A program made the position numbers and the translations under genes. 64,000 bases of DNA from Escherichia phage vB_EcoM-LTH01, in sequence record PP430345; one strand, 5' to 3'. The notes beneath the pieces were generated by a model. That model was not told the origin of the DNA and searched no databases. It was given only the letters and a program-made list of their open reading frames with translations. Below are positions 23,376 to 47,894 of this stretch, piece after piece (position 1 is the stretch's first letter; each line of letters starts with the position of its first letter).

Positions 23376-24791
23376 TTACACCCCTACAGAAGAAGTAGTG
23401 AAAGAAGTCTGAGTGCTTTGGGTCGTAGTTTGAGGACGATCCAGAACAACAGCAGCGCGAATTTTAACGTAGTGCAGGGAGTTGTTGTAAACTACTTCAA
23501 CTTTAACATCACGCAGGATACGGTTAGCCAAGTCGTTGCTTGGAATTTCAGCACGACGAGGAATAGTAATGATTGGATCGTAGCTCACACGGTTCACTGT
23601 ATCATAACCAGTCAGAATACCACCGTTACGAATACCGATGTTGATTGGATTATTGAACAGGATAGAACGCAGAACCGGAAGATCTTCATCACTCATCTTC
23701 ATGGACTGGCCTTGATCAGAACGACGCTTCATGTATCCGAATACAGATTCTTCCATGCGGAATTTCAGCCAATGGGAGAAACGAATAACGTCAACATACT
23801 GACCGCTGGAGGTACGACCTTCGATGTAGCTGTTAGTGCCGTACATTGCACGATAGATGTTTGCGTTACGTCCCCAAGCGTTGCTACGCTGAGTTTCGGA
23901 GATGGTAGAAGGCTTCATGCCAGGCATTGTCTTCAGGTGAATAGAGTCACCGTAAGAAGGATCGTTGGCAGCCATTGCACCGATAACAGAACCTTCGGTG
24001 AATTCTACATCCGCTTCTTTGTCGTAAGTACCCAGAGAGTTGTAACCCAGAGCTTTCAGTGTATCAAACACGGAAGCGCTTTGGTTAGCTGCTGCCAGAG
24101 CATCGCTGTCACTGGAATTATATACGTGCAGTTTATAATTGGCTTGTGCAAATTCAGCCGCTGCAACGATATCTGCATCAGAACGTTGTTCGTGAGACAG
24201 GAAGTACCAGTTGTGGTTTTCAGCAAGTACCTGCGGAAGAACAGTTGCAACAGTTTCAACAGAGGTGTTTACAATCTTGTAATTACCTTCGCCTTTTCCT
24301 ACGCTGATAATTTCTGCGGATTGTACAACAACGACGACACCACCTTCAACAGTTGCAGTAACGCGACCAGCCAAATCCGCATCGTTGTTAATGCCTTCTG
24401 CCAGAGCGGTTGCGATCTGACCAGGGGTGTTTCCAACGTTAACCAAAATGGTGATTGCTTTAACAACCTTATTGATGGTAATATTTACAACAACACGTTC
24501 GGTATTGGTAGTGCCAGTAAAGTCGATTCGAGAACCCGACATAGACATACGACCAATAGCCACCAGTTGCGGAGCAAAAGAACCGCCAAATGCATTGGAT
24601 GCAAACTGATGCGCTGCGGAACCAACTGCAAATCCATCACCAACCAGACTTTCCAAAGACCCGTACAGACGGAGACGTTCAGGGAAGTTGTTGTGTACTG
24701 CTAAGAACATTGGGGTTTCAAACCCTACGGTATCAATAGGTTGAGTGCCAAGAGTTACCTCGACGTCAACTACCTTATCTTCATAAGCCAT
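23376..24791 (-). CDS. contractile tail sheath protein
   Basis: 471 aa; position and size; identifies a myovirus-type tail. Confidence 0.8.
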   Translation of the reverse strand: MAYEDKVVDVEVTLGTQPIDTVGFETPMFLAVHNNFPERLRLYGSLESLVGDGFAVGSAAHQFASNAFGGSFAPQLVAIGRMSMSGSRIDFTGTTNTERVVVNITINKVVKAITILVNVGNTPGQIATALAEGINNDADLAGRVTATVEGGVVVVVQSAEIISVGKGEGNYKIVNTSVETVATVLPQVLAENHNWYFLSHEQRSDADIVAAAEFAQANYKLHVYNSSDSDALAAANQSASVFDTLKALGYNSLGTYDKEADVEFTEGSVIGAMAANDPSYGDSIHLKTMPGMKPSTISETQRSNAWGRNANIYRAMYGTNSYIEGRTSSGQYVDVIRFSHWLKFRMEESVFGYMKRRSDQGQSMKMSDEDLPVLRSILFNNPINIGIRNGGILTGYDTVNRVSYDPIITIPRRAEIPSNDLANRILRDVKVEVVYNNSLHYVKIRAAVVLDRPQTTTQSTQTSFTTSSVGV

Positions 24792-26536: not shown

Positions 26537-27094
26537 TTAGTTGACCATCCAAGGATTACGCTTTCTTACACCAGTTCTTGTACCCACAGCAGGGAAAATA
26601 CCTGGTTCCATGAATCCATTGAAGGAATCCCGATTTCTTTTAACTCTCGCAAATTCACCATTCCTTGTTCCACCGATAATGATCAAACCGAGGCCAGAAC
26701 CTACGGCGTTGTCTTTAAGGCACGGGTCAATATACTCAGGATGCTCAGTCAACCAGTCGAGAAAGTCTTGCCAGTTTCCAGAGTTAGACCCGTATTTCAC
26801 AGATATGGTTTCATCGCCAACTTTTTCGAATCGTTCACGAATTGAAGAAGCACCACTTGAAACTTCCTGAACAATAAGCCAACGTACACAATCAAGAACG
26901 GTATTGTAAAGAATGATGGAGAACTGATCCGGCCTGTTTTCTAGGTCGTAACAAATCTTCCATTTATTATAGAAAAACAGAATCATGCTGTCAGGCATTT
27001 CATCTTCAGTAAGTCCACCTAAAAAGTTACGGACAAGTTGTACTACTTCTTCATCAGTCATGTTATCCTCCAGTGTATTAAAACATATTATCAC
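26537..27094 (-). CDS. hypothetical structural-module protein
   Basis: Gene order. Confidence 0.35.
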   Translation of the reverse strand: MIICFNTLEDNMTDEEVVQLVRNFLGGLTEDEMPDSMILFFYNKWKICYDLENRPDQFSIILYNTVLDCVRWLIVQEVSSGASSIRERFEKVGDETISVKYGSNSGNWQDFLDWLTEHPEYIDPCLKDNAVGSGLGLIIIGGTRNGEFARVKRNRDSFNGFMEPGIFPAVGTRTGVRKRNPWMVN

Positions 27095-27120: not shown

Positions 27121-27146
27121 AAAATAAAGCCACCCGAAGGTGGCCT
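27121..27146 (-). terminator. intrinsic terminator (GCCACC-CGAA-GGTGGC + U-tract)
   Basis: Hairpin 27128-27146 followed on minus strand by TTTATTTT. Confidence 0.5.
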
Positions 27147-27153
27147 TATACAT

Positions 27154-28851
27154 TTAATAGACATTACCGGTTTGAATAGTTTGTGTAGCTCCGTCAAAAA
27201 TACAAATAGAATATATTGACAATCTCCCACCTGTGTCACTTGAAGAAGATTTATTCATCGTTGCTGTTATCCAAACCCTCCAACAACTTCCGTCGTTATT
27301 GTCTGTAACAACAAGGTGCATTGTATCTGGATACCCTACAGTCGCCGACGCATTTTCAACATAAGCAACAGTATTGCTCAATGTTGCATTACTTACCCTC
27401 CCTGTTTTTATTCTATTAATATCCGTGTAGTTAGCCGTCAAGTACCATCCAAAATTTATTTGTCTGGAAGAAGACGATGTTCCTGCGGAGAAACCTACCT
27501 TAACTTGACTAGCCAAACCTGCGGCGTCAATAATAAGCCTTACATTACCATTATTAGTACCGGGTAAAGGTAACCACATTTTTTTAGTCCCAGTAGGTGT
27601 ATTATAAACCCCAGCTAAGGTAGGAGTAGCAGCTGGACCTACATCTCCTTTATCCCCTTTGTCCCCTTTCTCGCCCTTAGGACCTTGAGGGCCTATCATA
27701 CCTGCCGGACCTTGTGGTCCAATAGCACCTGTCTCCCCCTGAGGGCCAGTCGGACCCCTGATACCCTGAGGGCCAGCTATGCCTTGAGTGCCTTGAGGGC
27801 CTGCTGGGCCGATATCTCCTTTATCTCCCTTAGGACCTTGCGGACCCTCTGGGCCAGTTGGTCCTGCATCACCCTTCACTCCCTGGGGACCTTGTGGACC
27901 TTGAGGACCAGTCGGACCTATATTACCTTGAGGGCCAGTTGGACCCGTTGCACCAATTGGACCTTGAGGACCTTCAGGGCCTGCTGGACCTTCAGCGCCT
28001 ATATCCCCTTTAGGTCCTTGTGGTCCCATAGGACCCTGAGGTCCTTCAGCACCTTGATCACCTTTGGGACCAACAGCGCCTGCAATCCCCTGAATACCCT
28101 GGGGACCCTGAGGGCCTGTTGGCCCTTGTTCCCCCCTTGCACCTTGATCACCTTTTGGACCCTGCGGTCCTTGTGGACCTGTTGGCCCTTGAGATCCTTC
28201 TAAGGCTAAGATAACCCAATCTTCATTTGTACCAGGTTCTGAGCCAATACTGGCAGAACTGGCAAAATACGTTGAACCATTGTAAGAAACCGAATCATTT
28301 TCAGAATAAGATTCCTCAGCGTCCCAAGTACCTTTGAAAGTCAAACCAGCAGGGCCAACCTCACCTTTTTCCCCTTTAGGGCCTGTAAGTCCGATCGGTC
28401 CTTGCGGACCTTCTGCTCCAGTCTCACCCTTAGGACCTTCAGGGCCAACAAGTCCCTGAGGACCTTGCTCACCTTTTTGTCCTTGTGGCCCTTGCGGACC
28501 CATAGGTCCTTGAGGGCCAACAATACCAGCTGCCCCCGCTATACCTGCGGGACCTTGTTCTCCTTTATCACCCTTAGGACCTGTAAGGCCACGGACACCT
28601 TCATCTCCTTTGGGACCAATAGGACCTTGCGGTCCAATATCCCCTTTTGGACCCTGAGGGCCAGCAGGTCCAACTGGACCTTGTTCTCCCTGAGGTCCGC
28701 GAGGACCAGTGTTACCAACATCACCTTGTTCTCCGACACGGGAAAACAAATCTTTAAACAAATACCTCTTTCTTGCATTAAGATCGTAAACGGCAGTCCC
28801 GAAATAAACCCCGCTGTGATCTCCCGTAATACCTTTAGCTGTAGAAGGCAT
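27154..28851 (-). CDS. collagen-like triple-helix repeat protein with globular C-terminal domain (565 aa)
   Basis: Long uninterrupted Gly-X-Y tracts ([23 protein letters not shown]...), then ~170-aa non-collagenous C-terminus. Confidence 0.75.
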
Positions 28852-28863
28852 AGATTACTCCTA

Positions 28864-29502
28864 TTAAACAGTGCGGAAAGATTCAGGTACGGAAGGAAGT
28901 TCTTCAATATTTTTTGCAATATTCACTTCTTTAATAAAAGTCCCCATATTATTGTAACTTTCTACATAAACGGAGATTATTTCTTTGATAAGTTCGATTA
29001 CATCTAGACGAAGATGCTCGATCACTTTATTATCATAAGTTAACAGACTAAATAATTGATCGTCTTCAGCCAGTTCTGCAACAGAAAGAATGGAGTGATA
29101 AAGAGACAGTGAATTTGAATCTACAGAATAGAAACTACCATCAACCTCTACGCCGCCCATGTTTTCATTTTCGAAATTAGATTTGGCAGAGTAGATTAAT
29201 TGTTCTTTTTCACGAGTCAAGTTATCAGCTAACTCTTCCTCGGTAAAATCCCTAACGTTCCAAGTTCTGTACCAGAAACCGTCTTCTCGCAATTCTGGAA
29301 GTCCTTCCGTCACAACATCCCCTTGCGGCATCGGTACATCATAAACCGCATGATATCCAACTTCAGCCATACCGACAGCGTAAACAAAGCTACCAATAGA
29401 TACGTTAGGATATTCAGCACGGTAGTCGGCCAGGTATACCGGATAACGCATGTCAGACATGCGGATCATGGGGGTCCAGCCATAAATCTTATCGATCACC
29501 AT
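28864..29502 (-). CDS. hypothetical protein between the two collagen-like genes
   Basis: ORF track; AAAGGAA RBS. Confidence 0.4.
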   Translation of the reverse strand: MVIDKIYGWTPMIRMSDMRYPVYLADYRAEYPNVSIGSFVYAVGMAEVGYHAVYDVPMPQGDVVTEGLPELREDGFWYRTWNVRDFTEEELADNLTREKEQLIYSAKSNFENENMGGVEVDGSFYSVDSNSLSLYHSILSVAELAEDDQLFSLLTYDNKVIEHLRLDVIELIKEIISVYVESYNNMGTFIKEVNIAKNIEELPSVPESFRTV

Positions 29503-29547
29503 ATTAATTCCTTTCTGAAAGAGGGGGCCTAAGCCCCCATTTAAAAA

Positions 29548-32500
29548 TTAACCTATAGTCATTGCTTGAGTACCCGTCAGGAACTCACCATCCCAGAACA
29601 AGGTCAGGATAGTGCGAGTAGCCCCGAGAGTAGGTGCTGTTCCGTTAGACCAAGCGATCTGGCTATCCCAGTTAATCTGACCACCGTTACCAGTGAATCG
29701 TAAGACTATGGTTTTAGCCCTTCCTGCTGGCAATCCGGTGATGACTAAGGATTTGTTGGTAGTCCCATCTAAAGTCCAAGCGTTACCTGTGCTTGCATCA
29801 ATTGCCCCTGTAGAAGCAACAACACGCAAATCGTACTGGTCCAGCTTAACCCATGCGCCGTTTTCACGAACATAGAACCCACCTTCCAGCGGTGCTTCCA
29901 GAACTGGAACCGTCAATGTAGACCAAGCACCATCTTTACGGACGTACTGGTTACCATCACGAGGTGCTTCCAGAACTTCTGCGGTAGGCAGTTCAGTCCA
30001 ATCACCGTCGGTACGGACATACAGCTTTCCGTCCCCTGGTGCGTCATACACGTTACCACCACCTAAGAATCCGAGCAGTGCCCAGTTCGTTGCGGAAGTT
30101 TTACGGTAATATTCCAGAGTGGAAGAGTTCAGGTACAAATCGTTAAGACGACCATCGCTAACCATCGGTGCACGAGGGAAAACAACCCACAATGTACCTT
30201 GATCACCTTTAGCACCTGTCGGACCAGAAGGGCCTTGCGGACCTTGGTTACCCGTTGGACCAACTGGTCCTACTGGACCTTGGATACGTCCTAAGTTTTC
30301 GTATGCTGCACCAGTCCAACCCCAGAAGTCACCTTGGATAAGATAACCTTGACCCAAAGTACCAGTTGAAGGTAATTCATCAGAGGTATCAAATCGACCA
30401 ATGATCTCTACACCAGGACCAATATCTCCCTGAGGACCTTGCTCACCCTGTGGGCCTTGGTCGCCTTGTGGTCCTACTTCACCACGTTCACCCTGAGGAC
30501 CTTGCTCCCCTTGTGGCCCTGTGGCTCCAGTATCACCTTTGTCACCTTTAGCGCCAGTCAATCCCTGAGGGCCCTGAGTACCCTGAGGACCTTGCTCCCC
30601 TTGTGGGCCACGGGCAACCCCAGCCTCTACAAAAGCAGTTCCGTCGAAAGCGTAACCGATCCCAGTGTCGTCTGTGACATAGAAATCACCTACAGCACCA
30701 GTTTGAGGAAGGTCTGCTTGAGATGGTACAGTTCCTTTAGGGATCAGGCCAGAGCCAACATCCCCCTTGTCGCCTTTGTCTCCTTTTGCACCAGTTTCAC
30801 CAGCAGGTCCTTGTGGTCCTTGGTCACCCGTAGAACCTTTCTCACCTTGTGGACCTTGAGGACCAACTTCTCCTTGAGGGCCGACCTCACCCTGCGGTCC
30901 GCGAACGGTTCCGGCAGAAACGAATTCCACGCCATCCCAAGCGTAACCGATCCCAGTGTCTTCAGCTACGTAGAAGTCACCTAATTCAGCAGTAGAAGGA
31001 AGTTCAGCGGAGGTTGCAACCAAACCTTTCAGCTTCAGTGCATCACCTGCGTCGCCTTTGTCTCCTTTGTCTCCTTTCTCACCAGTGTCGCCTTTGTCGC
31101 CCTTCAGACCCTGAGGTCCACGAGTAAGACCAGTCAGTACCCATGCAGTGCCATCCCAAGCATAACCATTACCTTCAGACTCTACAACGTAGAAGTCACC
31201 AGTGGTGGCATCGGCAGGAAGTGCTTCTTGAGTTGCAACAATACCACGAGCAACGATACCAATTCCAGTATCACCCTTATCACCCTTATCGCCCTTGTCA
31301 CCTTTTTCGCCAGTCTCACCCTGTGGACCAATACCACCTTGTGGACCAGTCTCACCTTGGGGGCCAGCAGGACCTTGTGCCCCTGTTGCACCCTGCGGTC
31401 CTTGTGCACCAGTCAGACCAATAGGACCTTGTGGACCTTGTGGTCCTACATCCCCTTGGGGACCTTTGATGTTACCAACGTTAGTCCACTGACCGCCAGT
31501 AAAGATATAAAGATCAGCTTCAATCAGATAAGCATCACCTTCACTAATACCAGTCTGAGGCAATTGGTCTTCGGAAGCTACTGAGCCAAGGATATTCAGA
31601 CCCGCACCAACAGGACCTTGTTCACCTTGTGGACCAGTTAATCCACGAGGGCCAGTTGCACCCACGTCACCTTTTTCACCCTTCAAGGTTGCAAGGTATT
31701 CATTAACTGAACCTTCGAAACCGTTAGCAACCGCGATAGTGTAGTTGTCGTCTCCTTTATCGCCTTTATCGCCTTTGTCCCCTTTATCGCCTTTATCACC
31801 CTTAGCACCAACTGGGCCTTGTGGGCCTTGGAAAGATCCCAAATCTTCCCAGTTACCAGTACCATCAGAAACGAAGACATTAGTTCCGATCAGGTAAGCA
31901 TCACCCGCATCAGCACCTGCTGGCAAACTTGCTTCATCGGCAACAGAACCTAAGATATTAATAGCGTTAGCATTCTTACCGTCAACACCAGGTTCACCCT
32001 GCGGTCCTTGTTCACCAACATCCCCTTTCTCACCCTTCAGCGATTCAAGAAATTCACGTTGAGAACCAACGTTACCGTTAGCCAGCCAGACCTGATAAGC
32101 AGAACGACCTTCAGGGCCAATCTGGCCTACTGGTTGCCATTTATCGGTATCTCCCGTCCAAACATACATCTTTTCTTGAATGATGTAGGCATCACCAGGT
32201 TTGTTCTCTTCTTGAGGAAGATCTTCGATACGCTGGAAAGAACCAAGGAGTTGCAGACCTATACCGTCAGCACCACGAAGGGTAGCCAACCAGTCATCGA
32301 CTGTTCCAACAAAGCCTGCGGTTTCAGCAACTTCAAATGCAGAAAGACCTTCAGGTCCAGCGAAGTTACCTACGTTTCTCCATTGTTTGATACCACCTTC
32401 AGTGATAACGGTAAAGAAACTCTGTCCGATTACGTATGTATCACCATTCGCAAGATCAACAACAGAAGGCAATTGATCTTCAGATGCCAAGGTGTCGAGG

Positions 32501-33348
32501 ATGTTGATACCAATACCAGCAGGGCCACGAGGACCTTCTACACCACGAGGGCCAGTTGCTCCAGTCAGACCGATAGGTCCAGTTGCGCCAGCAGGACCGA
32601 CTTCTCCAGTATCCCCTTTATCCCCTTTTTCACCCTGCGGGCCAACAGGTCCAGTTTCTCCGGCTGGGCCTTGTGGACCTGCTGGTCCTTGTTCACCCTG
32701 ATCGCCTTTGTCACCTTTGATGGTTTCTACAAACAGACCATCTGAACGTTGTTCCAGTTTGTTACCTGCATCTTGAGAAATGTCAGCACCAACTGGAGCC
32801 ACATACAGTGCACCTTCACGAACTTGCAAGCTGTTGTCGATAGCGGGGGAAACTTTAACTGCCAAACCATCAGGGTCTACAGACAAAGCGTTAGTTGAAG
32901 AGGTGGAAACTTTCAGGGATATACGGGAGTTTTTAGCAACCAGAGGATCTGCGGTAATTTCCAGTGCGTCACCAACAGCGGTAGTGGTAGCATGAACTGG
33001 CTCAACCAGAACACCTTCCAAACTGGCATCACCTTGAGCAGCAGCTTCTTCCGCAGTGACGTATTTTGCAACGTTCGCCTGAGAGGTAGATACTTTAGCA
33101 TCTCCAGCGGAAGCAAACAAGCCTTCCTCGTTATCAGTCTGAACCAGAGTCAGGGCGTTACCTGCACGGCGAGATAGCTTAACTTGAGCTTGCAGAGGGG
33201 AAGAGGTAGTACCATTACCAACTAACAGGGTAGATACAGTATCTTCCGTTTCAATACCGTTAAAAATAACTCCACCACCAGTGGTAGTTACGACAGGATC
33301 AGGAGCAGTAACGAATGCTTCCACGACCTTATCATTATATTCAGCCAT
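29548..33348 (-). CDS. giant modular collagen-like fiber protein (1266 aa)
   Basis: At least eight Gly-X-Y blocks alternating with ~40-aa repeated globular modules (GDAYLIG..., [17 protein letters not shown]...), [12 protein letters not shown] runs, three C-terminal repeats (YVR.DG.W). Confidence 0.75.
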
Positions 33349-33400: not shown

Positions 33401-33994
33401 TTAAAGTGCAGCAGCTAAATCTTCAAGCATCCCATCAAAGGTTTTACCTTTGCTCAGTGAAATGCCGTATTCCACAGCGAAAGCTTCCAATGCCGCCTTA
33501 GATGCAGACTTTTTGCTGTCGTCACGCAGTTCTTCAGCCTTGGCTAAGATCTGAGATTTTTCTTCTTCAGTACGAGCAGTTAATTCTTCCTTTACTTCAA
33601 CTTCTTTAACTTCTTCAACTTTAGTGTTGACAAGTACAGACTCTTCCATTACCTTAGTTGGAGTATCAGTAACAATGGCTTCTTTGACAGCCTCAATTTT
33701 CTTAACATCCAAACGGAATTTTAAAGGATCTTTAGGCTTCTCTTTAAAGAATACTAGGAAACTTGTACCTTTTTGCACAGAAGCAAGGGTGTCGATACCG
33801 AGAGCGGTCATCTTTTCCATTTGAGTTAGAAAATCATAAAGGCCACGGGCAAGGACTAGTTTTCCGTCGTAGCTGTAAAGGAATGCACCTAAACGTGCAG
33901 AGGTGTTTACATCAAGCTTTTCTAGATATTCACCGAAGAACTTGAGCATGTGATATTCACTTTTAAAAATTTCCAAGTGAGTTTGCTTAGACAT
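33401..33994 (-). CDS. hypothetical structural protein downstream of major capsid gene
   Basis: ORF track; charged coiled-coil-like C-terminal half. Confidence 0.4.
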   Translation of the reverse strand: MSKQTHLEIFKSEYHMLKFFGEYLEKLDVNTSARLGAFLYSYDGKLVLARGLYDFLTQMEKMTALGIDTLASVQKGTSFLVFFKEKPKDPLKFRLDVKKIEAVKEAIVTDTPTKVMEESVLVNTKVEEVKEVEVKEELTARTEEEKSQILAKAEELRDDSKKSASKAALEAFAVEYGISLSKGKTFDGMLEDLAAAL

Positions 33995-34071: not shown

Positions 34072-34102
34072 ATAATAAAAAAGGCCACCCGAAGGTGACC
34101 TT
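34072..34102 (-). terminator. intrinsic terminator after major capsid gene
   Basis: GGCCACC-CGAA-GGTGACC hairpin (one mismatch) followed on minus strand by TTTTTTATTATG. Confidence 0.55.
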
Positions 34103-34118
34103 TAATCAGTTATTAAGA

Positions 34119-35114
34119 TTATTCAAACTTACCAACAGACTTAACTACCAGTTCAGGACGGTTGTTAACAGTCAGGAAGGAAGTTTCAGATTCGATCTTC
34201 GCTTCACGCAGGTACTGAGATTCTTTGAAGAATACATACAGTTCCTGAGCTACTTGGTTAGCACCTTCCAGAGTGTCGCTCGGCGCGTAATAGATTTCGA
34301 ACATACGATCGATACCACGAGGGAAGATGTATGCTTCACCAGCAGGGATGTTACCGGAAATGTCTTCGATGAACAGGATGTTCTTGTGTTCGAAGATACG
34401 GTTGTTGGCATTACCGCCCAGACGACGACGCAGGACTTCCTGAGTAGAAGGGTACTGAGAATATGCACCAGTTACCTGCGGGTGAGCGATCAGAGCAGAG
34501 AACCACTGACGGGATGCCATAACGACGATCTCGTAGTTGTCACCTTGGTCACCAGCGTAATCGATGATGTGTGCACGAGCTTCAGCTTCCAGCACTTCAA
34601 TCGGGTCAATAGCCAGAGCGGTGAAGTCAACGTCAGCAGTCTGCTGGGTTACACCCCAAACATCGTAGTAGTCGTAATCACAAACCGGATCGTTAGGGGA
34701 CCAGGAAGTACCTTTCAGAGCAGCGTACATTGCCTTGGATTTCAGAACCGCATGACTACGACGGATACGGGCCAAGTGACGAGCCACTTCAGCTTCAACA
34801 GTTGCCGGAGCGTTGTCAGTACCGAATTCACGGAAGTTCTGAATGTCTGCACGGTCGATAGAACGGTCAAGAGGGAAGAACGGGATGTTCAGGTTTACGA
34901 TCTTTTTACGATCATTACCCAGGTGCTGACGAACGCTACCACGCTGTACAGCATTGATCTGACCAGCACCGTCATCACGACGTTCGATTTTAGCGATAGT
35001 AGTACGACCAAAGTTCTCAGTGAACAGGTTCATGCTTTGAAGCAGGGTATCAACACGCGGCAGAGTAGAGATCAGGCCAGTGTAATCCAGGATTTGAAAA
35101 TCACCATTTTGCAT
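34119..35114 (-). CDS. major capsid protein (lambda gpE-like family)
   Basis: 331 aa; order decoration-like then capsid as in lambda D-E; followed by strong terminator; family by size/order and loose sequence resemblance. Confidence 0.65.
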   Translation of the reverse strand: MQNGDFQILDYTGLISTLPRVDTLLQSMNLFTENFGRTTIAKIERRDDGAGQINAVQRGSVRQHLGNDRKKIVNLNIPFFPLDRSIDRADIQNFREFGTDNAPATVEAEVARHLARIRRSHAVLKSKAMYAALKGTSWSPNDPVCDYDYYDVWGVTQQTADVDFTALAIDPIEVLEAEARAHIIDYAGDQGDNYEIVVMASRQWFSALIAHPQVTGAYSQYPSTQEVLRRRLGGNANNRIFEHKNILFIEDISGNIPAGEAYIFPRGIDRMFEIYYAPSDTLEGANQVAQELYVFFKESQYLREAKIESETSFLTVNNRPELVVKSVGKFE

Positions 35115-35589: not shown

Positions 35590-36684
35590 TTAGGCGTTAA
35601 TAAATTCAGCATTGCCGTTAGCAGCCTTAGCGATCTCTGCTGCACGTTCTGCGATTACTCGGTTCAAACGAGCCTGAGCGTCTTCAGAGCCTTTAGCAAC
35701 TTCAGTCAGTTGACCATCAGCACCTACTTCTTTGCCGTCAGCGAAGGATTTTTTGATCTCTTCGATTTCTGCATCTTTAGCGACGAGAGCTTCGTCTTTC
35801 TCTTTAAGAGCAGCAGCAGCTTTTTCCAGCACAGCAACAACAGATGCTTTAGCTGGGTCTTCGATCAGGTCAGCAACAGCTTCACGTTGGTCATCAGCAA
35901 CAAAACCAAAACTTGCAGCTTTGTTCAAGGCAACTTCACGTTTTGCAACAGCCTGAGCTTTAACGATTTCTTGAGCAGCGGTGAAGGTTTCTTTCATACC
36001 TTCAACCTGAGCCATCAACGCTTCATTAGCTTTCATCAGATCAATGAATTGTTGGGACTTGGTTACATCTACTTCTTTTTCCACAGGAGTCTCCTTGATG
36101 GTTGTGGTCGCTCCAGCGGAGCTTACAGGTTCAGGCTTAGTAGCTGATTTAACTACTTCACCAGTTTCTGGTTTGCGTAATTCTGAATTGTCACCAAAGT
36201 CAAGGCCCAATTCTTTACATCCGTCTTCAAACTGCTTGCGAGTCTTAATTAACTCGAAGCGTTCAACGAGAGAAAGGTCAGCACCTTCTTTTGCTTTCTT
36301 GATGATAGTGATTGTTTCAAGCTTCTCATCGAGATATTCTTGATGACGACGGATGTAATCAGCCGTATAAGAATCCAAGTCTTCAGGATCTTTATCAGCA
36401 TATTCGTCTTCGAAGGTAGTTGTGAAGCCCAGCAGCTTAGTAAGTAACTCAGCATCATCATAATACATGTGGAAGAAGCGACGTAAAAACTCTTCCATAC
36501 TGATAGTTACTTGAACTTGCTCAAGGGCTTTGATAACATCAACCGTCAGTTTGCTGGGGTCAATGTCAGATTTAGTGAGAAGGCTTACGTGGCGATTGTT
36601 CGCACTGTAACCTTGATCTCGGTGAGTTAGAGCAATTCCGCGAGATTTAATCTGGCGACCTTTCTCTATAAGGGTCTTAATCAT
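35590..36684 (-). CDS. putative scaffolding protein
   Basis: Ala/Glu/Lys-rich coiled-coil C-terminal half; position between portal side and capsid. Confidence 0.45.
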   Translation of the reverse strand: MIKTLIEKGRQIKSRGIALTHRDQGYSANNRHVSLLTKSDIDPSKLTVDVIKALEQVQVTISMEEFLRRFFHMYYDDAELLTKLLGFTTTFEDEYADKDPEDLDSYTADYIRRHQEYLDEKLETITIIKKAKEGADLSLVERFELIKTRKQFEDGCKELGLDFGDNSELRKPETGEVVKSATKPEPVSSAGATTTIKETPVEKEVDVTKSQQFIDLMKANEALMAQVEGMKETFTAAQEIVKAQAVAKREVALNKAASFGFVADDQREAVADLIEDPAKASVVAVLEKAAAALKEKDEALVAKDAEIEEIKKSFADGKEVGADGQLTEVAKGSEDAQARLNRVIAERAAEIAKAANGNAEFINA

Positions 36685-41234: not shown

Positions 41235-41309
41235 TGGCTGGGGATACTGGACTCGAACCAGTGAATGTTGGAATCAAAATCCAATGCCTTACCGCTTGGC
41301 TAATCCCCA
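41235..41309 (-). tRNA. tRNA-Gln (anticodon TTG)
   Basis: Manual cloverleaf: 7-bp acceptor, anticodon arm TTGGA-TTTTGAT-TCCAA, T-arm ACTGG-TTCGAGT-CCAGT, encoded CCA; close to E. coli tRNA-Gln. Confidence 0.8.
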
Positions 41310-41317
41310 TTTTTGTT

Positions 41318-41393
41318 TGGAGCGGATAACGAGACTCGAACTCGTGACATTCTGATTGGAAATCAGAAGCTCTACCAACTGAGCTATACCCGC
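41318..41393 (-). tRNA. tRNA-Gly (anticodon TCC)
   Basis: D-arm GCTCAGTTGGTAGAGC, anticodon arm TCTGA-TTTCCAA-TCAGA, T-arm ACGAG-TTCGAGT-CTCGT, CCA encoded. Confidence 0.8.
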
Positions 41394-41398
41394 ATATT

Positions 41399-41475
41399 TG
41401 GTCGGTGTACGAGGATTTGAACCTCGAACCTAATGCTCCCAAAGCATTCGCGCTACCAAGTTGCGCTATACACCG
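41399..41475 (-). tRNA. tRNA-Pro (anticodon TGG)
   Basis: Anticodon arm AATGC-TTTGGGA-GCATT, T-arm CGAGG-TTCAAAT-CCTCG, CCA encoded. Confidence 0.8.
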
Positions 41476-41479
41476 TATT

Positions 41480-41560
41480 TGGCGTGAAGGTGAAGAGTCG
41501 AACTCCTTACGACTGGTTTTGGAGGCCAGCTTGCCACCGTGACAATTATGTTACCCGCAC
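41480..41560 (-). tRNA. tRNA-Trp-like (anticodon CCA), atypical 5' half
   Basis: Anticodon loop CTCCAAA and T-arm GGAGTTCGA resemble tRNA-Trp, but acceptor pairing needs a mismatch and the D-arm region is ~5 nt too long. Confidence 0.4.
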
Positions 41561-41569
41561 ATTAATTTG

Positions 41570-41642
41570 GTTTCCGTACTGGATTCGAACCAGTATCACA
41601 ACGAGACGTTGCGGGAATCTTATCCTATAAGCCTAACGGAAA
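41570..41642 (-). tRNA. tRNA-like element, possibly non-functional
   Basis: Perfect acceptor (TTTCCGT/ACGGAAA), U8-A9 and T-arm ACTGG-TTCGAAT-CCAGT, but anticodon-position hairpin has a 3-nt TCT loop on a 7-bp stem. Confidence 0.3.
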
Positions 41643-41645
41643 ATT

Positions 41646-41732
41646 TGGTGCATTGTGATGGAGTCGAACCACCCGAGTTCTATGAACAGCAGATTTACAG
41701 TCTGCCCCGCTACCCCTACGGTCTAACAATGC
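41646..41732 (-). tRNA. tRNA-Tyr (anticodon GTA), long variable arm
   Basis: Anticodon arm GCAGA-CTGTAAA-TCTGC identical to E. coli tRNA-Tyr; variable arm GTTC-ATA-GAAC; perfect 7-bp acceptor; CCA encoded. Confidence 0.8.
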
Positions 41733-42040
41733 CTTATCCTACGGTCACACAAGTCTGACCATCTATCTCTGAGCAAGGGATTTCAAAATGTCTCCCGTCC
41801 CCAAATACATCTCGCCACATAGTCTATTCGGAAGCGGGAGTCTATGCACACCCCTTGCGGTAAGTGACCTCACTTTGAGATCAGCATCTTCCTTATTCGA
41901 CGAGTTAAATTCTCTTTAAGGTAGCCAGTGTTCGCAGCACTAACTATGAGGTATCCGTAAGATGATTTCAGTCATCTACCGAAAAATTACACCAAGCAAC
42001 TACCTTAAAGAGAACTTCTTAGTAAAGGCCCTTGCGAGCC

Positions 42041-42415
42041 TTAATCTTCACCTTCTGCCATTTTATACTCACGAATCTGAGTAGTTAATGGAATAGCATC
42101 TTTAAATGCATCAGAAGGGCCTTGATGAGTTTCTGAATTTGCAGAAGTAGTTCCTCCTGCCAGATCCTCTTCATTATCTTCCATTGTGTACAGATTGTTT
42201 GCCTTTTCAGCTTGCTCAAGAATATACTTCGCAGTAGTTTCTTTAACTTTCTCTGTACCGGAAGTCAGTAGACCTTCCAGAGTTTTAATTGCTTGAGGAG
42301 TAAGTCTTGCAAACTCGGAACGAGCATGAAGAATTGCTCTCTCAGTATTGATTGCAATGCTTTCCTCTGTAGTAGGCCGACCGCGTTTTCGAGTAACGAT
42401 TTCAGCTTTAGCCAT
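42041..42415 (-). CDS. hypothetical early protein (basic N-terminus RKRGRPTTEE, acidic C-terminus)
   Basis: ORF track 42041-42421; ATG 42415 preferred (GAGG + 5-nt spacer); promoter-like hexamers just upstream. Confidence 0.45.
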   Translation of the reverse strand: MAKAEIVTRKRGRPTTEESIAINTERAILHARSEFARLTPQAIKTLEGLLTSGTEKVKETTAKYILEQAEKANNLYTMEDNEEDLAGGTTSANSETHQGPSDAFKDAIPLTTQIREYKMAEGED

Positions 42416-42442
42416 AAACACCTCAATTCAGTCGATATAACT

Positions 42443-42471
42443 ATATTAGCAGTATAATAGGATTATGTCAA
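42443..42471 (-). promoter_or_regulatory. putative sigma70-like promoter (TTGACA-17-TAATAT)
   Basis: Consensus -35 and 4/6 -10 read on minus strand upstream of the 42415 start. Confidence 0.4.
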
Positions 42472-42607
42472 GAACTTATTGAAATGTATTAAGAAATGAA
42501 ATGGGGGTGCGCCGTTTCTGCTGTAATCTACGTCGTTATCGTTGAGGGAACTCGTAGTCAGGGAACATCAGTCCGACGACTTATCGGGAGCGACCCGACT
42601 TCTTATG

Positions 42608-42682
42608 TGGTGGCCCTGGGTGGAATCGAACCACCGTCTGGCGATTATGAGTCGCTTGCTTGAACCGTCCAGCTACAGGGCC
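42608..42682 (-). tRNA. tRNA-Met (anticodon CAT; initiator vs elongator vs tRNA-Ile2 not resolved)
   Basis: Perfect acceptor GGCCCTG/CAGGGCC, anticodon loop CTCATAA, T-arm GGTGG-TTCGATT-CCACC, discriminator A, CCA encoded. Confidence 0.75.
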
Positions 42683-45837: not shown

Positions 45838-46172
45838 AAAAGTCTATTGTGGCGTACAAGTTGTTTAGAGTCAGGAAAGACGGTACAATAGGCCCCCTAT
45901 TTATCAATAGATCTTTAGTCGTAGAAAAGAATAAGTGGATGGAAGCTGAAAATCATCCTACTCGGGGATTTTCTGTACGACCAGGTTGGCATTGTACACT
46001 TAAACCTGAAGCTCCTCATCTGAAGATAAACCTTAAATCGGGAGAGATCCGTAAATGGTTCAAGGTTGAAGTTCAAGGCACTGTTAATTTTCAAAGACCT
46101 GAATCTCAAGGCGGCACTTGGATATTGGCAGAAAGATTACGCGTTCTGGAGGAGGTATCTGGCAGTGTGTGA
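45834..46172 (+). CDS. hypothetical protein
   Basis: ORF track; ATGA overlap. Confidence 0.45.
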   Translation: MKKSIVAYKLFRVRKDGTIGPLFINRSLVVEKNKWMEAENHPTRGFSVRPGWHCTLKPEAPHLKINLKSGEIRKWFKVEVQGTVNFQRPESQGGTWILAERLRVLEEVSGSV

Positions 46173-46404
46173 ATGTGATAATTGTAAGCTTGGGAAAAGG
46201 ATCGGGGATGTTCGAGAATACCTGAAAGATCGCCCTGATCTTGTTGACACTCTTGATGAACTGTATAGTGAATACATTCATGTAAGTACGGATCTTGAGT
46301 GGCTTGAGAACGTTGTAAATAAAAGGTGGCCTAATTACCAGGGGTGTATGAAGGCTTATGGTTGGGTAGAGGACAAAAAGGAGACTAATGATGAAAGTTG
46401 TTGA
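46165..46404 (+). CDS. hypothetical Cys-containing protein (GTG start)
   Basis: ORF-track frame 46066-46404 overlaps previous gene by 107 nt; GTG 46165 after GGAGG (46150-54) gives an 8-nt overlap. Confidence 0.35.
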   Translation: MCECDNCKLGKRIGDVREYLKDRPDLVDTLDELYSEYIHVSTDLEWLENVVNKRWPNYQGCMKAYGWVEDKKETNDESC

Positions 46405-46582
46405 TATAGAGATCAGTGAGAACATTGCTGGTGGGTATTCTCTTCTGGTATGTAATCGTGAAGGTGGTGAGATTGTTCACGGCTATAAGGTTGGTGGGAT
46501 GGACACTGTAGAGTCATTCACTGTTCCTTTGGACGTATTACTGGAAGCAATCAAGAATAACACCTACGATACTGAAGAGTGA
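46388..46582 (+). CDS. hypothetical protein
   Basis: ORF track; AGGAG RBS. Confidence 0.4.
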   Translation: MMKVVDIEISENIAGGYSLLVCNREGGEIVHGYKVGGMDTVESFTVPLDVLLEAIKNNTYDTEE

Positions 46583-46586
46583 TGCT

Positions 46587-46958
46587 ATGACGACAGAGAA
46601 GAAGCCTTTTGACAAGACGGCCTTTGTTTTTAATACGCCAGTTGAAAAACTTGAAGAATGTTTGTTGACATGCAATGAAGAGTTGAGTAGACTGCTCACT
46701 ATTCCGAAACCGGACCCTTGGGTACAGGATCGTATCGACGATCTGTCTTATTGGTTGGGTATTTGGGAGCTACAGCTTCCTGACGCTAAGAGACGGAAGA
46801 TGACAACCGTTCCTATGAGTGCGATAGAAAGAGTCGTGCTTGGGCTGTATGAGAAGCCAGAGGAGCCTAAAAAGGCTTGGACCAAACCGAAAAAGAAAGC
46901 ACCACCAAAGGTGGAAAAGGAGAAGAAACGTGTCACAAAAAAGAAAAAGTCTGTCTGA
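46587..46958 (+). CDS. hypothetical protein with Lys-rich C-terminus
   Basis: ORF track. Confidence 0.45.
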   Translation: MTTEKKPFDKTAFVFNTPVEKLEECLLTCNEELSRLLTIPKPDPWVQDRIDDLSYWLGIWELQLPDAKRRKMTTVPMSAIERVVLGLYEKPEEPKKAWTKPKKKAPPKVEKEKKRVTKKKKSV

Positions 46959-46977
46959 GAAATGGCTTAGTAACGGA

Positions 46978-47331
46978 ATGTCAAACCAGTGGATTGATTC
47001 TGGATTGGCAACCTGCTTGAAAAAGCCAAACAAGACGCTCATCGAAGAAGAACCAAAAGATGAAGTTTTCGAATCTCCGAATGGAAGTGTTTGGATTGTG
47101 GCTGTCGATTACAGTGGACGGGTAACCGTCCTTAAAGCACCAAATATTCATCCTGCATTGCTTGACGAGGGTCCTGAAGCGGAGTATATTGGTCTTCCAC
47201 CTGATTCAGATTCTGGCCCTGGTGTTTACCGTTGGACGTGTAGTTATCATGAAAGTAAGGATCGAGAATCTAATCTTGTGGACGGTTTTGAGTTTCATGT
47301 GGAGAAAGAAGAGGTTCTTTTCTCTGTTTAG
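46978..47331 (+). CDS. hypothetical protein
   Basis: ORF-track frame 46840-47331 trimmed to first ATG past upstream stop. Confidence 0.35.
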   Translation: MSNQWIDSGLATCLKKPNKTLIEEEPKDEVFESPNGSVWIVAVDYSGRVTVLKAPNIHPALLDEGPEAEYIGLPPDSDSGPGVYRWTCSYHESKDRESNLVDGFEFHVEKEEVLFSV

Positions 47332-47340
47332 GAGGAAACA

Positions 47341-47562
47341 ATGAGGATAAGTAAGAAGACTCATCCGTTTTATTTCACCAATGTCTATATGGGTGGGGAA
47401 CTGAAGAAATCCAGCTTTGATGCTTGGTATCGAGGGATCAAAGCATTCGCATTTCTCCGTCGGAACATTGGTGGCATCATTAAAAAGAATGATCAGTTCT
47501 TTAAAGAGAATCCTGATTATGTTGAAGGTGCTCTTTGTGGAAAACTAAAGGAGACTAAATGA
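47341..47562 (+). CDS. hypothetical protein
   Basis: ORF track; GGAGG RBS. Confidence 0.45.
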   Translation: MRISKKTHPFYFTNVYMGGELKKSSFDAWYRGIKAFAFLRRNIGGIIKKNDQFFKENPDYVEGALCGKLKETK

Positions 47563-47894
47563 AATATCGGTTCAATGGCTACAAAACTAAATTTACCTCT
47601 CTTAAGTTTGTTGTTGGTAAGGTATATGATTTCAAAGATCGAGTTTTTGAAGTTGCTAATGAAGATGGGATCATGCTATCGGGTAGCGACGAGAATGGTA
47701 CAACCGGAGTGATCGTATTTTTTAAGGACTATGATTTCGAAGTTGTTGGGGAGGGAAGTCCTGAGATACGGTATATTGTTAGTGGCAAGAATGTAACTAA
47801 AGAGGTCTTTGAAGAGGTTAAAAAATCCCTAGAAGATCTTGACAAGATTGGGTTTGGTCTGGCAAAATACACATTAGAAATCAAAGCAAACTAA
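47559..47894 (+). CDS. hypothetical protein
   Basis: ORF track; ATGA overlap. Confidence 0.45.
   Translation: MKYRFNGYKTKFTSLKFVVGKVYDFKDRVFEVANEDGIMLSGSDENGTTGVIVFFKDYDFEVVGEGSPEIRYIVSGKNVTKEVFEEVKKSLEDLDKIGFGLAKYTLEIKAN

Follow-up and report, generated by a model that had tools for sequence, protein, structure and literature searches.

The window analysed here is a 64,000-nucleotide stretch from a Septuagintavirus-like (Vequintavirinae) E. coli myophage, Escherichia phage vB_EcoM-LTH01 (record PP430345). Two collagen-like proteins, hereafter A and B, are encoded on the minus strand, and their open reading frames of 565 and 1266 aa were found exactly where an earlier note had placed them. 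That note missed the M gene between the two, the foldon identity of the terminal repeats of B and the CBM5/12-like knob in A. The genes and boundary features of the locus are as follows.

6083-13862: distal tail-fibre locus, separate from the cassette
23376-24791: sheath gene
26537-27094 and onward: adaptor/neck genes, flanking the cassette
27124..27149, minus strand: downstream intrinsic-terminator-like hairpin, directly past the A stop codon; downstream boundary of the cassette
27154-28851, minus strand: protein A gene, 565 aa, collagen-like
28864..29502, minus strand: M gene (phrog_4998), 212 aa, between the A and B open reading frames
29548-33348, minus strand: protein B gene, 1266 aa, collagen-like
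33401..33994, minus strand: 'pre' gene, 197 aa, phrog_3259 / Phage_Inh_N-like; first in the transcription unit
34080..34103, minus strand: upstream intrinsic-terminator-like hairpin, directly past the MCP stop codon; upstream boundary of the cassette
34119-35114: MCP gene, flanking the cassette on the other side

The genes pre, B, M and A form a terminator-bracketed cassette, which is newly described here. The upstream hairpin has a 10-bp stem with the core CACCTTCGGGTGGC followed by a T-run, and the downstream hairpin has an 11-bp stem with the same core. A terminator is annotated at the position equivalent to the upstream hairpin in phiTE and rV5, and another one past gene 217 of phiTE is comparable with the downstream hairpin. 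The cassette lies between the MCP and sheath genes and outside the distal tail-fibre locus, as had been noted, and the STF and LTF orthologues of the phage are present separately from A and B. The pre protein gave a weak match to the Inh family, and its orthologues carry a precomputed PF26097 Phage_Inh_N match. It is probably not a virion component; MS of W70 and CB7 virions did not detect its orthologues W70_132 and CB7_9. The portable B+M unit excludes pre, and two jumbo phages, EL and Ea35-70, have it at sites apart from capsid genes.

In protein B, an evolvable spacer lies between conserved ends, an organisation recognised here for the first time. Its parts, all on the minus strand, are listed below.

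32716..33348, minus strand: N-terminal non-collagen domain, residues 1-211; presumed virion-attachment end
30190..32715, minus strand: modular spacer, residues 212-1053; nine Gly-X-Y tracts, knots and helix modules
29842..30045, minus strand: tandem foldon-like beta-hairpin units (n=3), residues 1102-1169; putative trimerisation and registration nucleus
29551..29841, minus strand: C-terminal beta-sandwich, residues 1170-1266; conserved, presumed docking platform for M

The N-terminal domain opens with the conserved sequence MAEYNDKVV, after which come beta-fibrous 'GN.L...GL.V' repeats. Its identity across Certrevirus-type phages is 50%, its first 66 aa are kept in Seunavirus, and it weakly matched (E = 0.004) the baseplate long tail fibre gp015 of phage 7-7-1. 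The nine Gly-X-Y tracts of the spacer (7-23 triplets each) total 129 triplets, with a Pfam Collagen match far past chance (E = 1.3e-44). Both proteins had been described as dominated by Gly-X-Y triplets. The tracts account for 57% of A; B is modular rather than collagen-dominated because they make up 31% of it. The repeated globular units of ~40 aa reported earlier were recovered, and all four quoted strings fall within a family of eight type-1 knots of ~45 aa with the invariant L-P..G..Y..G..G.GP.G. Three helix-type (type-2) modules of ~24 aa are located at residues 336-359, 416-439 and 535-556.

The three terminal YVR.DG.W repeats were confirmed at residues 1102-1120, 1127-1145 and 1151-1169, the third reading YVRENGAW, and are homologous to the T4 foldon. 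Pfam Fibritin_C scored 39.7 bits (cutoff 21), a phmmer search of PDB foldon chains gave E = 4.7e-8 to a tandem-foldon construct, 11-14 of the 19 core residues are those of the T4 foldon, and the structure model of the region contains three beta-hairpins. Foldon-like units occur in many fibre proteins. Conservation of the C-terminal domain extends across hosts and to phage EL; in its model, the tip is similar to docking hubs known from branched adsorption machines, such as the CBA120 TSP4 XD domains, gp34 and gp9.

Protein A consists of the following parts.

28735..28851, minus strand: N-terminal anchor, residues 1-39; conserved
28339..28734, minus strand: collagen tract 1, residues 40-171; 44 triplets (44 or 51 in relatives)
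28198..28338, minus strand: CBM5/12-like knob (PF02839) breaking the collagen, residues 172-218
27631..28197, minus strand: collagen tract 2, residues 219-407; 63 triplets (48, 49, 54 or 63 in relatives)
27157..27630, minus strand: beta-rich tip, residues 408-565; exchangeable, presumed ligand- or receptor-binding end

The two Gly-X-Y tracts are unbroken (Pfam Collagen E = 4e-50), and the anchor carries the motif M..(R/K)G(I/M)TG...GV(Y/F)(F/Y)G.A.YDL....FKD. The knob was matched by PF02839 in all four A-type proteins (E = 1.9e-5 to 1.9e-3), in each case under the gathering score. In close relatives, the A-type anchor bears at least five unrelated tip types, and the tip in the window is 41-44% identical to those of CR3-type Certreviruses and of gp169 of the T-even phage IME08. 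One or two A-type paralogues occur per phage. Judged by its sequence, A appears to be an exchangeable fibre resembling a receptor-binding protein, which has not been described before. Given the collagen tracts and the three foldon units, A and B are almost certainly trimeric fibres, in agreement with the earlier note.

The structure model of M (pLDDT 92) has two domains and matches DUF4376/chaperone folds with Foldseek E values down to 5e-17, which establishes its fold class; a weak match to the virion-retained chaperone of Pam3 was also obtained. A DUF4376 sequence match was found in 4 of 17 M homologues, below the Pfam threshold. The family comprises 820 clusters. DUF4376 chaperones are encoded directly downstream of their fibre, as M is (PMC10579305). 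M is read here, for the first time, as a DUF4376-like fibre chaperone or adaptor, and it is retained in virions. In most of the lineages compared (the window, CR3, CB7, PVP-SE1, EL and L017), the gene after M encodes a structural protein, and a beta-propeller gene lies between B and M in EL and L017. M can do without a downstream partner, since the related locus L016 carries B and M and lacks the tip gene.

Length variation through the repeated DNA, another earlier suggestion, was observed in part. The tracts of A vary by whole triplets among relatives, and the B proteins of a Seunavirus congener pair differ by an in-frame block of ~594 aa with its junction in KGDQG repeats. In six close relatives, however, B measures 1262-1266 aa and has indels of just 3 or 6 aa, whole triplets within collagen tracts. 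The mini-B proteins of GEC_vB_MG and P0021 miss the entire spacer block. At the DNA level, the repeats share no more than 60-75% identity, the longest being 161 nt at 70%.

All three proteins are present in virions of close relatives, as was expected for A and B. In phage W70 (~91% nucleotide identity), 2032 spectra were reported for W70_131 (B), the top count in the virion, 114 for W70_130 (M) and 728 for W70_129 (A), and the orthologues of the cassette fibres were labelled 'unknown function' (PMC11370258). CB7_10, CB7_11 and CB7_12 were all confirmed by MS (PMC7344957). Per kDa, the W70 spectra amount to 15.8 for B, 13.7 for A and 4.8 for M, a ratio of ~3:3:1 that is just suggestive because spectral counts are strongly compressed (the portal, with 12 copies, scores 8.3). 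On this scale, M resembles proteins of 6-12 copies (adaptor 5.0, head-completion protein 3.6), and B and A reach ~1.5 times the two tail fibres and exceed the tube and sheath proteins. TEM of W70 and CB7 described just 'a bundle of thin flexible tail fibres', with neither 250-nm filaments nor head fibres.

The mosaic pattern of the cassette was compared across six loci. The N-terminal half of M co-varies with the B tip (r = 0.97) and the C-terminal half with the anchor of the next gene (r = 0.80), but not with the A tip (r = -0.09); these values derive from 15 non-independent pairs, and genomic adjacency alone could explain them. A recombination breakpoint sits exactly at the inter-domain helix of M.

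From these observations we propose a jointed accessory adhesion fibre, B3-M-A3, whose serial assembly and adhesive function we regard as evenly balanced between true and false. The cassette would be an insertion that separates the major capsid gene from the gene for the head-tail adaptor. The B trimer would serve as a stalk, attached to the particle by its N-terminal beta-fibrous domain and extended by a length-adjustable collagen triple helix of ~111 nm in nine segments split by knots, which probably re-register the three chains. Near the C-terminus, the foldon hairpins would start trimerisation and set the register of the chains. Collagen folds by zipping from the C-terminal side, and protein engineers exploit the T4 foldon likewise. 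The terminal beta-sandwich may act as a docking platform rather than a host-specific tip. M would be a DUF4376-type chaperone or cap left on the finished particle, its conserved N-domain binding the B tip and its variable C-domain binding the N-terminal anchor of whatever tip protein comes next. A would then be the second collagen fibre, likewise trimeric and ~92 nm long; it would bear a small, carbohydrate-binding-like knob, and its exchangeable C-terminal domain would contact a variable host-surface ligand. The resulting filament, ~250 nm long and ~1.5 nm thick with a swappable tip, may let the particle make a first, reversible contact from a distance with the surface or appendages of the host cell, supplementing the conventional baseplate-borne tail fibres, short and long.

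A less probable but serious contender is that B and A are two independent fibres, each anchored by its own N-terminus, and that M is a plain chaperone folding or capping B only. The M-A link would then reflect genetic linkage rather than contact; the 3' half of M adjoins the 5' end of A, and adjacent DNA tends to be co-inherited. The substrate of a DUF4376 chaperone is the fibre whose gene directly precedes its own (PMC10579305, PMC7289586), the N-termini of both B and A are conserved in the manner typical of directly anchored fibres, some phages have two A-type genes with one M, and L016 dispenses with the tip gene. However, it is the C-domain of M, the DUF4376 part, that tracks the anchor of the next gene and not the near-invariant B tip, and the breakpoint position, the persistence of M in virions and the structural gene following M in most lineages also argue against this reading.

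For the attachment site of the fibre, a six-fold, tail-associated position ranks first, at slightly under an even chance. Cryo-EM of phiTE contains an unmodelled 'third putative fiber' near the baseplate (PMC11972413). RefSeq gives tail-fibre names in phiTE to genes 215, 236 and 241 only, and by elimination this fibre would be the B homologue.

Attachment of B, A or both to the capsid surface, for example as trimers at hexamer centres in the manner of SPP1 gp12 or at the Hoc position, is possible but unlikely; such a collagenous 'hairy' capsid would capture hosts or flagella, or adhere to mucus or other surfaces. In three genera, the cassette comes directly after the MCP gene and the Inh_N-like gene, although EL and Ea35-70 carry B+M apart from capsid genes. 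In phiTE, the hexamer centres carry an unmodelled 'Pagoda' density that breaks the symmetry and has been provisionally attributed to pTE217 (PMC11972413), the third gene product of the phiTE cassette, whose CR3 orthologue has a 12-triplet collagen tract; but that assignment was based on MS abundance alone, and the similarity of the A anchor to the pTE217-type N-terminus was not significant (p = 0.05-0.18 against shuffles). The pTE217-type and A-type proteins are distinct families, because CR3 holds genes of both. In SPP1, a collagen-like trimer, gp12, occupies the hexamer centres, and its gene adjoins the MCP gene (PMC7602432), yet the A anchor has no significant similarity to gp12. In the T-even phage IME08, the A-type gene has the gp24 vertex genes on one side and hoc/inh on the other, and capsid fibres encoded by genes yet to be assigned serve the flagellotropic phage 7-7-1 (PMC12796354). 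The leading spectral count of B and the high values of B and A per kDa would suit a capsid location, whereas 6-12 copies would account for the value for M better than 120 would. M has the fold class of tail-fibre chaperones, and the TEM reports of W70 and CB7 contain no head fibres.

The neck placement favoured by the earlier note, with six B trimers as collar whiskers comparable to T4 fibritin and foldon ends that hold or assemble the long tail fibres, is quite improbable. The foldon motifs of B do recall T4 wac, the genes adjoin adaptor and neck genes, and the abundance data fit a six-fold site. With a predicted length of at least 130 nm against a tail of ~102-120 nm, neck-anchored B could reach the baseplate region, near which the long tail fibre of phiTE is proposed to bend capsid-ward and touch the third fibre. 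However, the ~3 Å phiTE connector disfavours whiskers: at 3.1-3.3 Å, only portal, adaptor, head-completion and terminator proteins were found (PMC11972413), and no collar or whisker anchor was reported in this phage, which has B and M homologues. B shares only the foldon with fibritin, a unit common to many fibre proteins; it lacks a coiled-coil shaft, and its foldons stop short of the C-terminal end. The known whiskers of E. coli myophages (Bas63, Sf14) are unrelated Ig-collar systems (PMC12609058), and the synteny argument is weak because B+M also occurs away from capsid genes.

Compared with known systems, the cassette has direct orthologues in identical gene order in W70, A73, A5-4, A7_1 and UPEC06 (PMC11370258). 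In these Septuagintaviruses, B is ~95% identical to that of the window and equally long (1266 aa), M is 60-66% identical and the architecture of A is shared, whereas window A differs in its tip domain and tract lengths (565 aa against 527-532 aa in the W70 group). The report on the W70 group does not mention collagen, foldons, a chaperone-like fold or the cassette logic (PMC11370258). In Certrevirus, a terminator-bracketed cassette occupies the equivalent slot (phiTE pTE215-217, CB7_10-12 and CR3 gp008-011; PMC11972413, PMC7344957), with M ~40% identical to that of the window and the N-terminal domain of B at the 50% given above. CR3 gp011 has the A architecture of the window, with a tip 43% identical. 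The Certrevirus B has two foldon units rather than three, and the third gene encodes a small protein absent from the window (164 aa in phiTE and CB7, a 103-aa mini-collagen in CR3). None of pTE215-217 is modelled in the phiTE structure.

The T4 long tail fibre, gp34-gp35-gp36-gp37 (PMC5537660), has no sequence homology to the cassette proteins; the cassette has collagen shafts instead of beta-structure, its genes adjoin the capsid gene, and its baseplate attachment is only putative. T4 fibritin (wac) shares with B the foldon motif, at 11-14 of 19 core residues, and the plan of a trimeric fibre with a C-proximal nucleus. B differs in having three tandem foldons, a further 97-aa domain and a shaft of collagen and beta-knots instead of an alpha-helical coiled coil, and has nothing similar to the N-terminal part with which fibritin binds the neck. 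M belongs by fold class with the DUF4376 chaperones or 'transient caps' of the Alteromonas phages V22 and A5 and with Pam3 7ypx (PMC10579305, PMC7289586), and shares with them a gene directly downstream of the fibre gene and an association with the distal end of the fibre. Unlike them, M carries an additional, conserved beta-domain at its N-terminus, belongs to the virion in stoichiometric amounts and has a variable domain that tracks the next gene rather than the fibre upstream; its sequence-level membership is sub-threshold.

SPP1 gp12 resembles the cassette proteins as a collagen-like trimer encoded beside the MCP gene and provides a precedent for a hexamer-centre collagen spike; however, it has 64 aa and 8 triplets against 565 and 1266 aa, the similarity is confined to Gly-X-Y, and capsid binding by A or B is putative. 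The EPclA-D proteins of E. coli O157 prophages (PMC3368898) carry, by description, coiled-coil and other phage-fibre domains and are encoded in the lambdoid prophage tail-fibre locus. In these and other collagen-like phage fibres, as in the cassette described here, non-collagen trimerisation domains flank the Gly-X-Y tracts.

The collagen-like genes of Escherichia phage vB_EcoM-LTH01 belong to a four-gene cassette, which is of the type encoding phage collagen-like fibres together with a chaperone. These genes are already known as unexplained virion proteins; what is new is the logic of the cassette, the tandem foldons, a DUF4376-like adaptor, the exchangeable tips of protein A and documented length polymorphism. 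Both open reading frames described in the earlier note were recovered with exactly the same ends, and the collagen-like character of their products was confirmed by the Pfam Collagen family (E = 4e-50 for A and 1.3e-44 for B). The features of the region are as follows.

34119-35114, minus strand: MCP
34103-34080, minus strand: terminator-like hairpin directly after the MCP stop, core CACCTTCGGGTGGC plus T-run
33401-33994, minus strand: 'pre' (Inh_N-like), the gene ahead of B
29548-33348, minus strand: B, collagen-like protein of 1266 aa
28864-29502, minus strand: M, 212 aa, phrog_4998
27154-28851, minus strand: A, collagen-like protein of 565 aa
27149-27124, minus strand: terminator-like hairpin directly after the A stop, core CACCTTCGGGTGGC plus T-run
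26537-27094, minus strand: adaptor

The phage is a Vequintavirinae myophage whose nearest relative is Escherichia phage UPEC06 (92% nucleotide identity), followed by the 'Septuagintavirus' phages A73, W70, A5-4 and A7_1 (approximately 91%). On the minus strand, TerL, portal, protease, a phiTE_211-like protein, decoration protein and MCP precede 'pre', B, M and A, and the adaptor, Neck1, head-completion protein, terminator protein, sheath, tube, chaperone and TMP follow. The two strong, near-identical terminator-like hairpins with their common core bracket pre-B-M-A, and terminators are annotated at both equivalent places in the Certrevirus-type phage phiTE. The cassette is absent from rV5, where the slot holds only genes for 74 and 193 aa, and from phi92, where it holds only gp125. 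A separate, conventional distal fibre locus in the window encodes a phiTE STF-type protein of 544 aa bearing coiled-coil, Collar and Ig domains, a Tfa-like chaperone, a phiTE LTF-type fibre of 1077 aa and a protein of 411 aa; since this locus is present, the collagen proteins constitute extra fibres. Membership of 'pre' in a portable module was rejected, the upstream gene in phage Ea35-70 being unrelated to it (E = 2.5).

On the plus strand opposite the collagen genes, ORFs of 172-245 aa occur at 32008-32745, 28402-29007, 30439-30984 and 27685-28203; such ORFs are expected from stop-poor GGN/CCN repeats, and these are very likely not genes. The GC skew, compared over 1-6000, 6000-46000 and 46000-64000, switches sign at approximately 6 kb and 46 kb, where the gene blocks also change their direction of transcription. 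A tRNA cluster (41235-42682, minus strand) comprising Gln(UUG), Gly(UCC), Pro(UGG), Tyr(GUA) and Met(CAU) lies a short way upstream of the structural module. Enrichment in the two collagen genes is highest for Gly, Pro and Gln (2.5-, 2.2- and 1.6-fold), and these genes carry 34%, 32% and 25% of the respective codons among 28 structural genes. A role of the adjacent tRNA-Gln, tRNA-Gly and tRNA-Pro in serving these genes was rejected, as the codon match is weak, GGT accounting for 55% of Gly and CCT for 51% of Pro codons. The phiTE_211-like protein (364 aa; 35590-36684, minus strand) sits where a scaffold gene is expected, and its orthologue W70_135 ranks third per kDa among W70 virion proteins (913 spectra).

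The cassette products are abundant virion components in relatives. In purified W70 virions analysed by ESI-MS/MS, W70_131 (B, phrog_3904, 129 kDa) gave 2032 spectra, the highest count of all proteins, compared with 1596 for the MCP, 728 for W70_129 (A, phrog_5073, 53 kDa) and 114 for W70_130 (M, 24 kDa); the 'pre' orthologue was undetected in the same virions (PMC11370258). Similarly, CB7_10, CB7_11 and CB7_12 were confirmed by mass spectrometry in phage CB7, and CB7_9 was undetected (PMC7344957). Spectra per kDa in W70 stood at 15.8 : 13.7 : 4.8 for B : A : M, with values of 8.9 and 11.2 for the two tail fibres, 5.0 for the adaptor and 8.3 for the portal. On this compressed scale, the level of M resembles that of proteins present in 6-12 copies, and B and A match or slightly exceed the 18-copy fibres. 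Derivation of copy numbers from these counts was rejected as too compressed, the 12-copy portal reaching only 8.3 per kDa. Among the other virion proteins, the 411-aa protein (6083-7318, minus strand) encoded after the LTF gene has a weakly RCC1-like N-terminus, and W70 virions contain three RCC1-like proteins.

Protein B contains nine Gly-X-Y tracts of 7-23 triplets each (129 in total, 31% of residues), which are interrupted by repeated globular units. The earlier note had quoted four such units; eight modules of approximately 45 aa with the invariant pattern L-P..G..Y..G..G.GP.G were found, together with three modules of approximately 24 aa (S.Y..W...G..GS..EFL.SLKG). The three C-terminal repeats that it had reported are also present, as EAP.DG..YVR.(D/N)G.W units at residues 1102-1169, and stand C-terminal to the last collagen tract as a flanking non-collagen trimerisation domain. 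These repeats match Pfam Fibritin_C at 39.7 bits (cutoff 21), and a phmmer search of the PDB with B returned T4 fibritin and foldon chains (E = 4.7e-8 to 1e-3), the top match of the foldon region being an engineered tandem-foldon construct (E = 4.7e-8). Within the 19-residue core of the T4 foldon, each unit agrees at 11-14 positions. Judged by these sequence matches, the three repeats are true foldon homologues. The model of the C-terminal 213 aa of B, of low confidence (pLDDT 58; terminal sandwich 66-80), places three beta-hairpins at the foldon units.

The two ends of B are conserved. The N-terminal 211 aa are 50% identical in the Certrevirus type, and in Seunavirus conservation covers the first 66 aa; the only PDB match of the N-terminus is 7-7-1 gp015 (E = 0.004), within a generic beta-fibre motif. 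The third foldon unit is followed by a domain of approximately 97 aa whose conservation extends from phages of E. coli, Pectobacterium, Cronobacter and Salmonella to gp156 of the jumbo Pseudomonas phage EL; this spread across hosts fits a docking domain and not a host-specific tip. The middle of B is its evolvable part. Orthologues measure 1266, 1262, 1215, 1099, 1093, 1067, 1046 and 918 aa, and indels among six close relatives comprise 3 or 6 aa inside collagen tracts. In EL gp156, the knots are kept and the collagen is almost gone. Two short versions of B, of 324 aa in Salmonella phage GEC_vB_MG and of 321 aa in a second protein (P0021), correspond to residues 1-132 plus 727-918 of gp69 from the congener PVP-SE1 (L004 12828-15584; 90-92% identity), thereby lacking its whole collagen and knot spacer of approximately 594 aa, with the junction inside KGDQG repeats. 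The earlier suggestion that the repeated DNA would permit length variation is partly right. A repeat search and TRF revealed only degenerate collagen-codon families of 60-75% identity and short arrays of 9-36 nt, and high-identity repeats as recombination substrates were rejected; within this genome, the DNA of the collagen genes is a poor substrate for homologous recombination.

Protein A begins with a conserved N-terminal anchor of 39 aa. Behind it come collagen tracts 1 and 2, separated by a CBM5/12-like knob, and lastly a C-terminal domain of 137-158 aa, a beta-domain that is a putative trimerisation domain. The two uninterrupted Gly-X-Y tracts (44 and 63 triplets) constitute 57% of residues, and all four A-type knobs match PF02839 (E = 1.9e-5 to 1.9e-3) at 18.6-25 bits, below the cutoff of 26.2. 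When the window was compared with UPEC06, A73 and four loci from metagenomes, the triplet count was 44 or 51 in tract 1 and 48, 49, 54 or 63 in tract 2, the tips comprised at least five unrelated domains, and either one or two A-type genes occupied the slot. A homologue search with the A tip gave no match; the same tip type was found at the same position in CR3-type Certreviruses (41-44% identity) and in gp169 of the T-even phage IME08 (41-44%), which also possesses the whole distal architecture. Exchangeable tips, variable tracts, one or two gene copies and tip recurrence together form the signature of an exchangeable ligand-binding fibre. Given the collagen tracts, the three foldon units and the virion data, A and B are almost certainly trimeric virion fibres, as the earlier note had proposed.

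Other arrangements of the A slot were also observed. Two A-type genes with different tips follow M in L010 (7668-11155) and L011 (7770-11298), and the slot is empty of an A-type gene in L016 (10001-10738). In L009 (7649-9289), the A-type gene is broken inside collagen tract 1 into ORFs of 78 and 430 aa, which could mean that it is a pseudogene, or reflect a frameshift or misassembly of the repetitive DNA. The IME08 gp169 gene (L006 5066-6462) lies inside the head-gene cluster, between gp24 and the hoc/inh genes, and is preceded by a 68-aa ORF in the same frame with a single stop codon between them, which suggests a mis-annotated start, read-through or a sequencing error. Kinship of this ORF with the A anchor was rejected, its score being reached by 18% of shuffles. 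Beta-propeller genes of the RCC1, WD40 or Kelch type occur inside B-M cassettes in L017 (8868-9983) and in EL (L005; gp153 and gp155), and such propellers may serve this fibre system as alternative tips.

Protein M was modelled with AlphaFold from 17 homologues at a pLDDT of 92, revealing a long helix (88-115) that joins a beta N-domain (1-87) to an alpha/beta C-domain. Foldseek comparison of the model with BFVD returned dozens of matches to DUF4376 proteins and 'tail assembly chaperones', the best being a DUF4376 protein of phage Noxifer (E = 4.9e-17, TM 0.91); in its predicted structure, M has the DUF4376 fold. At the sequence level, PF14301 (DUF4376) matched 4 of the 17 homologues below threshold (best E = 0.0074) and did not match M of the window, and a search of PDB sequences with M gave no match. 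Proteins of the DUF4376 type act as chaperones or 'transient caps' of tail fibres, and their genes directly follow the fibre gene (PMC10579305, PMC7289586). M directly follows B in the window, UPEC06, A73, CB7, CR3, PVP-SE1, the comparison loci L008-L011 and L016, and Ea35-70; a beta-propeller gene separates the two in EL and L017. The M family comprises 820 clusters at E <= 1e-3, nearly all of 205-245 aa, and is large and uncharacterised.

Pairwise identities over six loci were used to analyse co-variation within the cassette. The N-terminal half of M co-varies with the C-terminal 110 aa of B (r = 0.97) and its C-terminal half with the N-terminal anchor of the next gene product (r = 0.80), compared with r = -0.09 between the C-half and the A tip and approximately 0.3 between the C-half and B. 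This pattern defines the mosaic blocks [B...M-N], [M-C...A-anchor] and [A tip], the breakpoint falling at the inter-domain helix of M. M may therefore be envisaged as a two-faced adaptor, whose N-domain would sit on the B tip and whose C-domain would hold the anchor of the next protein in a B3-M-A3 assembly, with a logic analogous to T4 gp34-gp35-gp36/37. Gene adjacency alone could also produce such co-variation; further caveats are the occurrence of B and M without a tip gene in L016 and the intervening propeller genes of EL and L017. B, M and A likely form one modular fibre. Collagen rises 0.286 nm per residue, giving approximately 111 nm for the collagen parts of B alone and 92 nm for those of A; a serial fibre would, on this model, extend approximately 250 nm, twice the tail length.

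The attachment site of this fibre was considered in light of phiTE, which carries pTE215 (B), pTE216 (M) and pTE217, the product of its third cassette gene. A tail-associated site is our leading, tentative choice, with a chance somewhat short of even. A putative third fibre of phiTE was left out of the model, and contact between it and the long tail fibre has been proposed (PMC11972413). Genes 215, 236 and 241 are the only named tail fibres in RefSeq NC_020201, so by elimination the B homologue is the third-fibre candidate. A six-fold tail-associated site fits the fold class of M, the receptor-binding-like behaviour of A, the weak similarity to 7-7-1 gp015 and the low abundance of M. Attachment to the capsid is rather unlikely. 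It would accommodate the hexamer-centred, unmodelled 'Pagoda' density of phiTE, assigned by abundance to pTE217, as well as the collagen tract in the CR3 orthologue of pTE217, the position of the IME08 homologue among head genes, the great abundance of B and A, and the precedent of SPP1 gp12, a collagen-like trimer at hexamer centres. However, the A anchor shows no significant resemblance to N-termini of the pTE217 type, and in EL and Ea35-70 the portable B and M unit is found at a distance from the capsid genes. Homology of the anchor to the N-termini of CB7_12, CR3 gp010 and PVP-SE1 gp67 was rejected (HMM 0-1 bit; p = 0.05-0.18 against shuffles), and SPP1 gp12 showed no similarity outside Gly-X-Y. 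Neck whiskers, the other part of the earlier proposal, are unsupported and a neck site is improbable, because the phiTE connector at 3.1-3.3 Å consists only of portal, adaptor, head-completion and terminator proteins, without a collar (PMC11972413), and Bas63 and Sf14 have whiskers of an unrelated kind.

Cassette proteins are among the most abundant virion components in Septuagintavirus, Certrevirus and Seunavirus, with related cassettes in jumbo phages, yet no structural model contains them, the 'global' cryo-EM atlas of phiTE included. Probably forming a single modular B-M-A fibre, they are candidates for unassigned densities and provide a testable route to the primary receptor step; the interest is moderate and stems mainly from naming candidates for mass that a recently 'completed' virion atlas leaves unplaced. 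Use in biocontrol or therapy is under consideration for several of these phages, and exchangeable A tips on a constant anchor offer a handle for host-range change. Tandem foldons and knots are probably a natural way to register very long, interrupted collagen helices, which is relevant to the design of collagen-like materials. A bolder and quite unlikely reading is that the cassette forms a head-proximal 'fishing line', a jointed B3-M-A3 filament of approximately 250 nm attached to the capsid or its portal-proximal edge instead of the baseplate, tunable and with exchangeable tips. If so, its length would be set by triplet and module indels, it would be the organelle behind both the 'third fibre' and the 'Pagoda' densities of phiTE, and it would underlie the step in which phages of Certrevirus and Septuagintavirus capture a flagellum or surface. 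The natural collagen-foldon design would then be older than the engineered one, and the 820-cluster M family would represent a widespread, unrecognised class of fibre-to-fibre adaptors.

Among known systems, the T4 long tail fibre has a gene order (proximal trimer, monomeric joint, distal trimer) that fits B-M-A, and the W70 spectra per kDa are approximately 3:1:3 for B:M:A, though on a compressed scale; the cassette proteins have no sequence or structural homology to T4 gp34-gp37. T4 fibritin (wac) shares with B the beta-hairpin propeller motif of the foldon. Its shaft is an alpha-helical coiled coil, whereas that of B consists of collagen and beta-modules with no coiled-coil family match, and its foldon occupies the extreme C-terminus, whereas in B the third foldon unit is followed by the conserved 97-aa domain.
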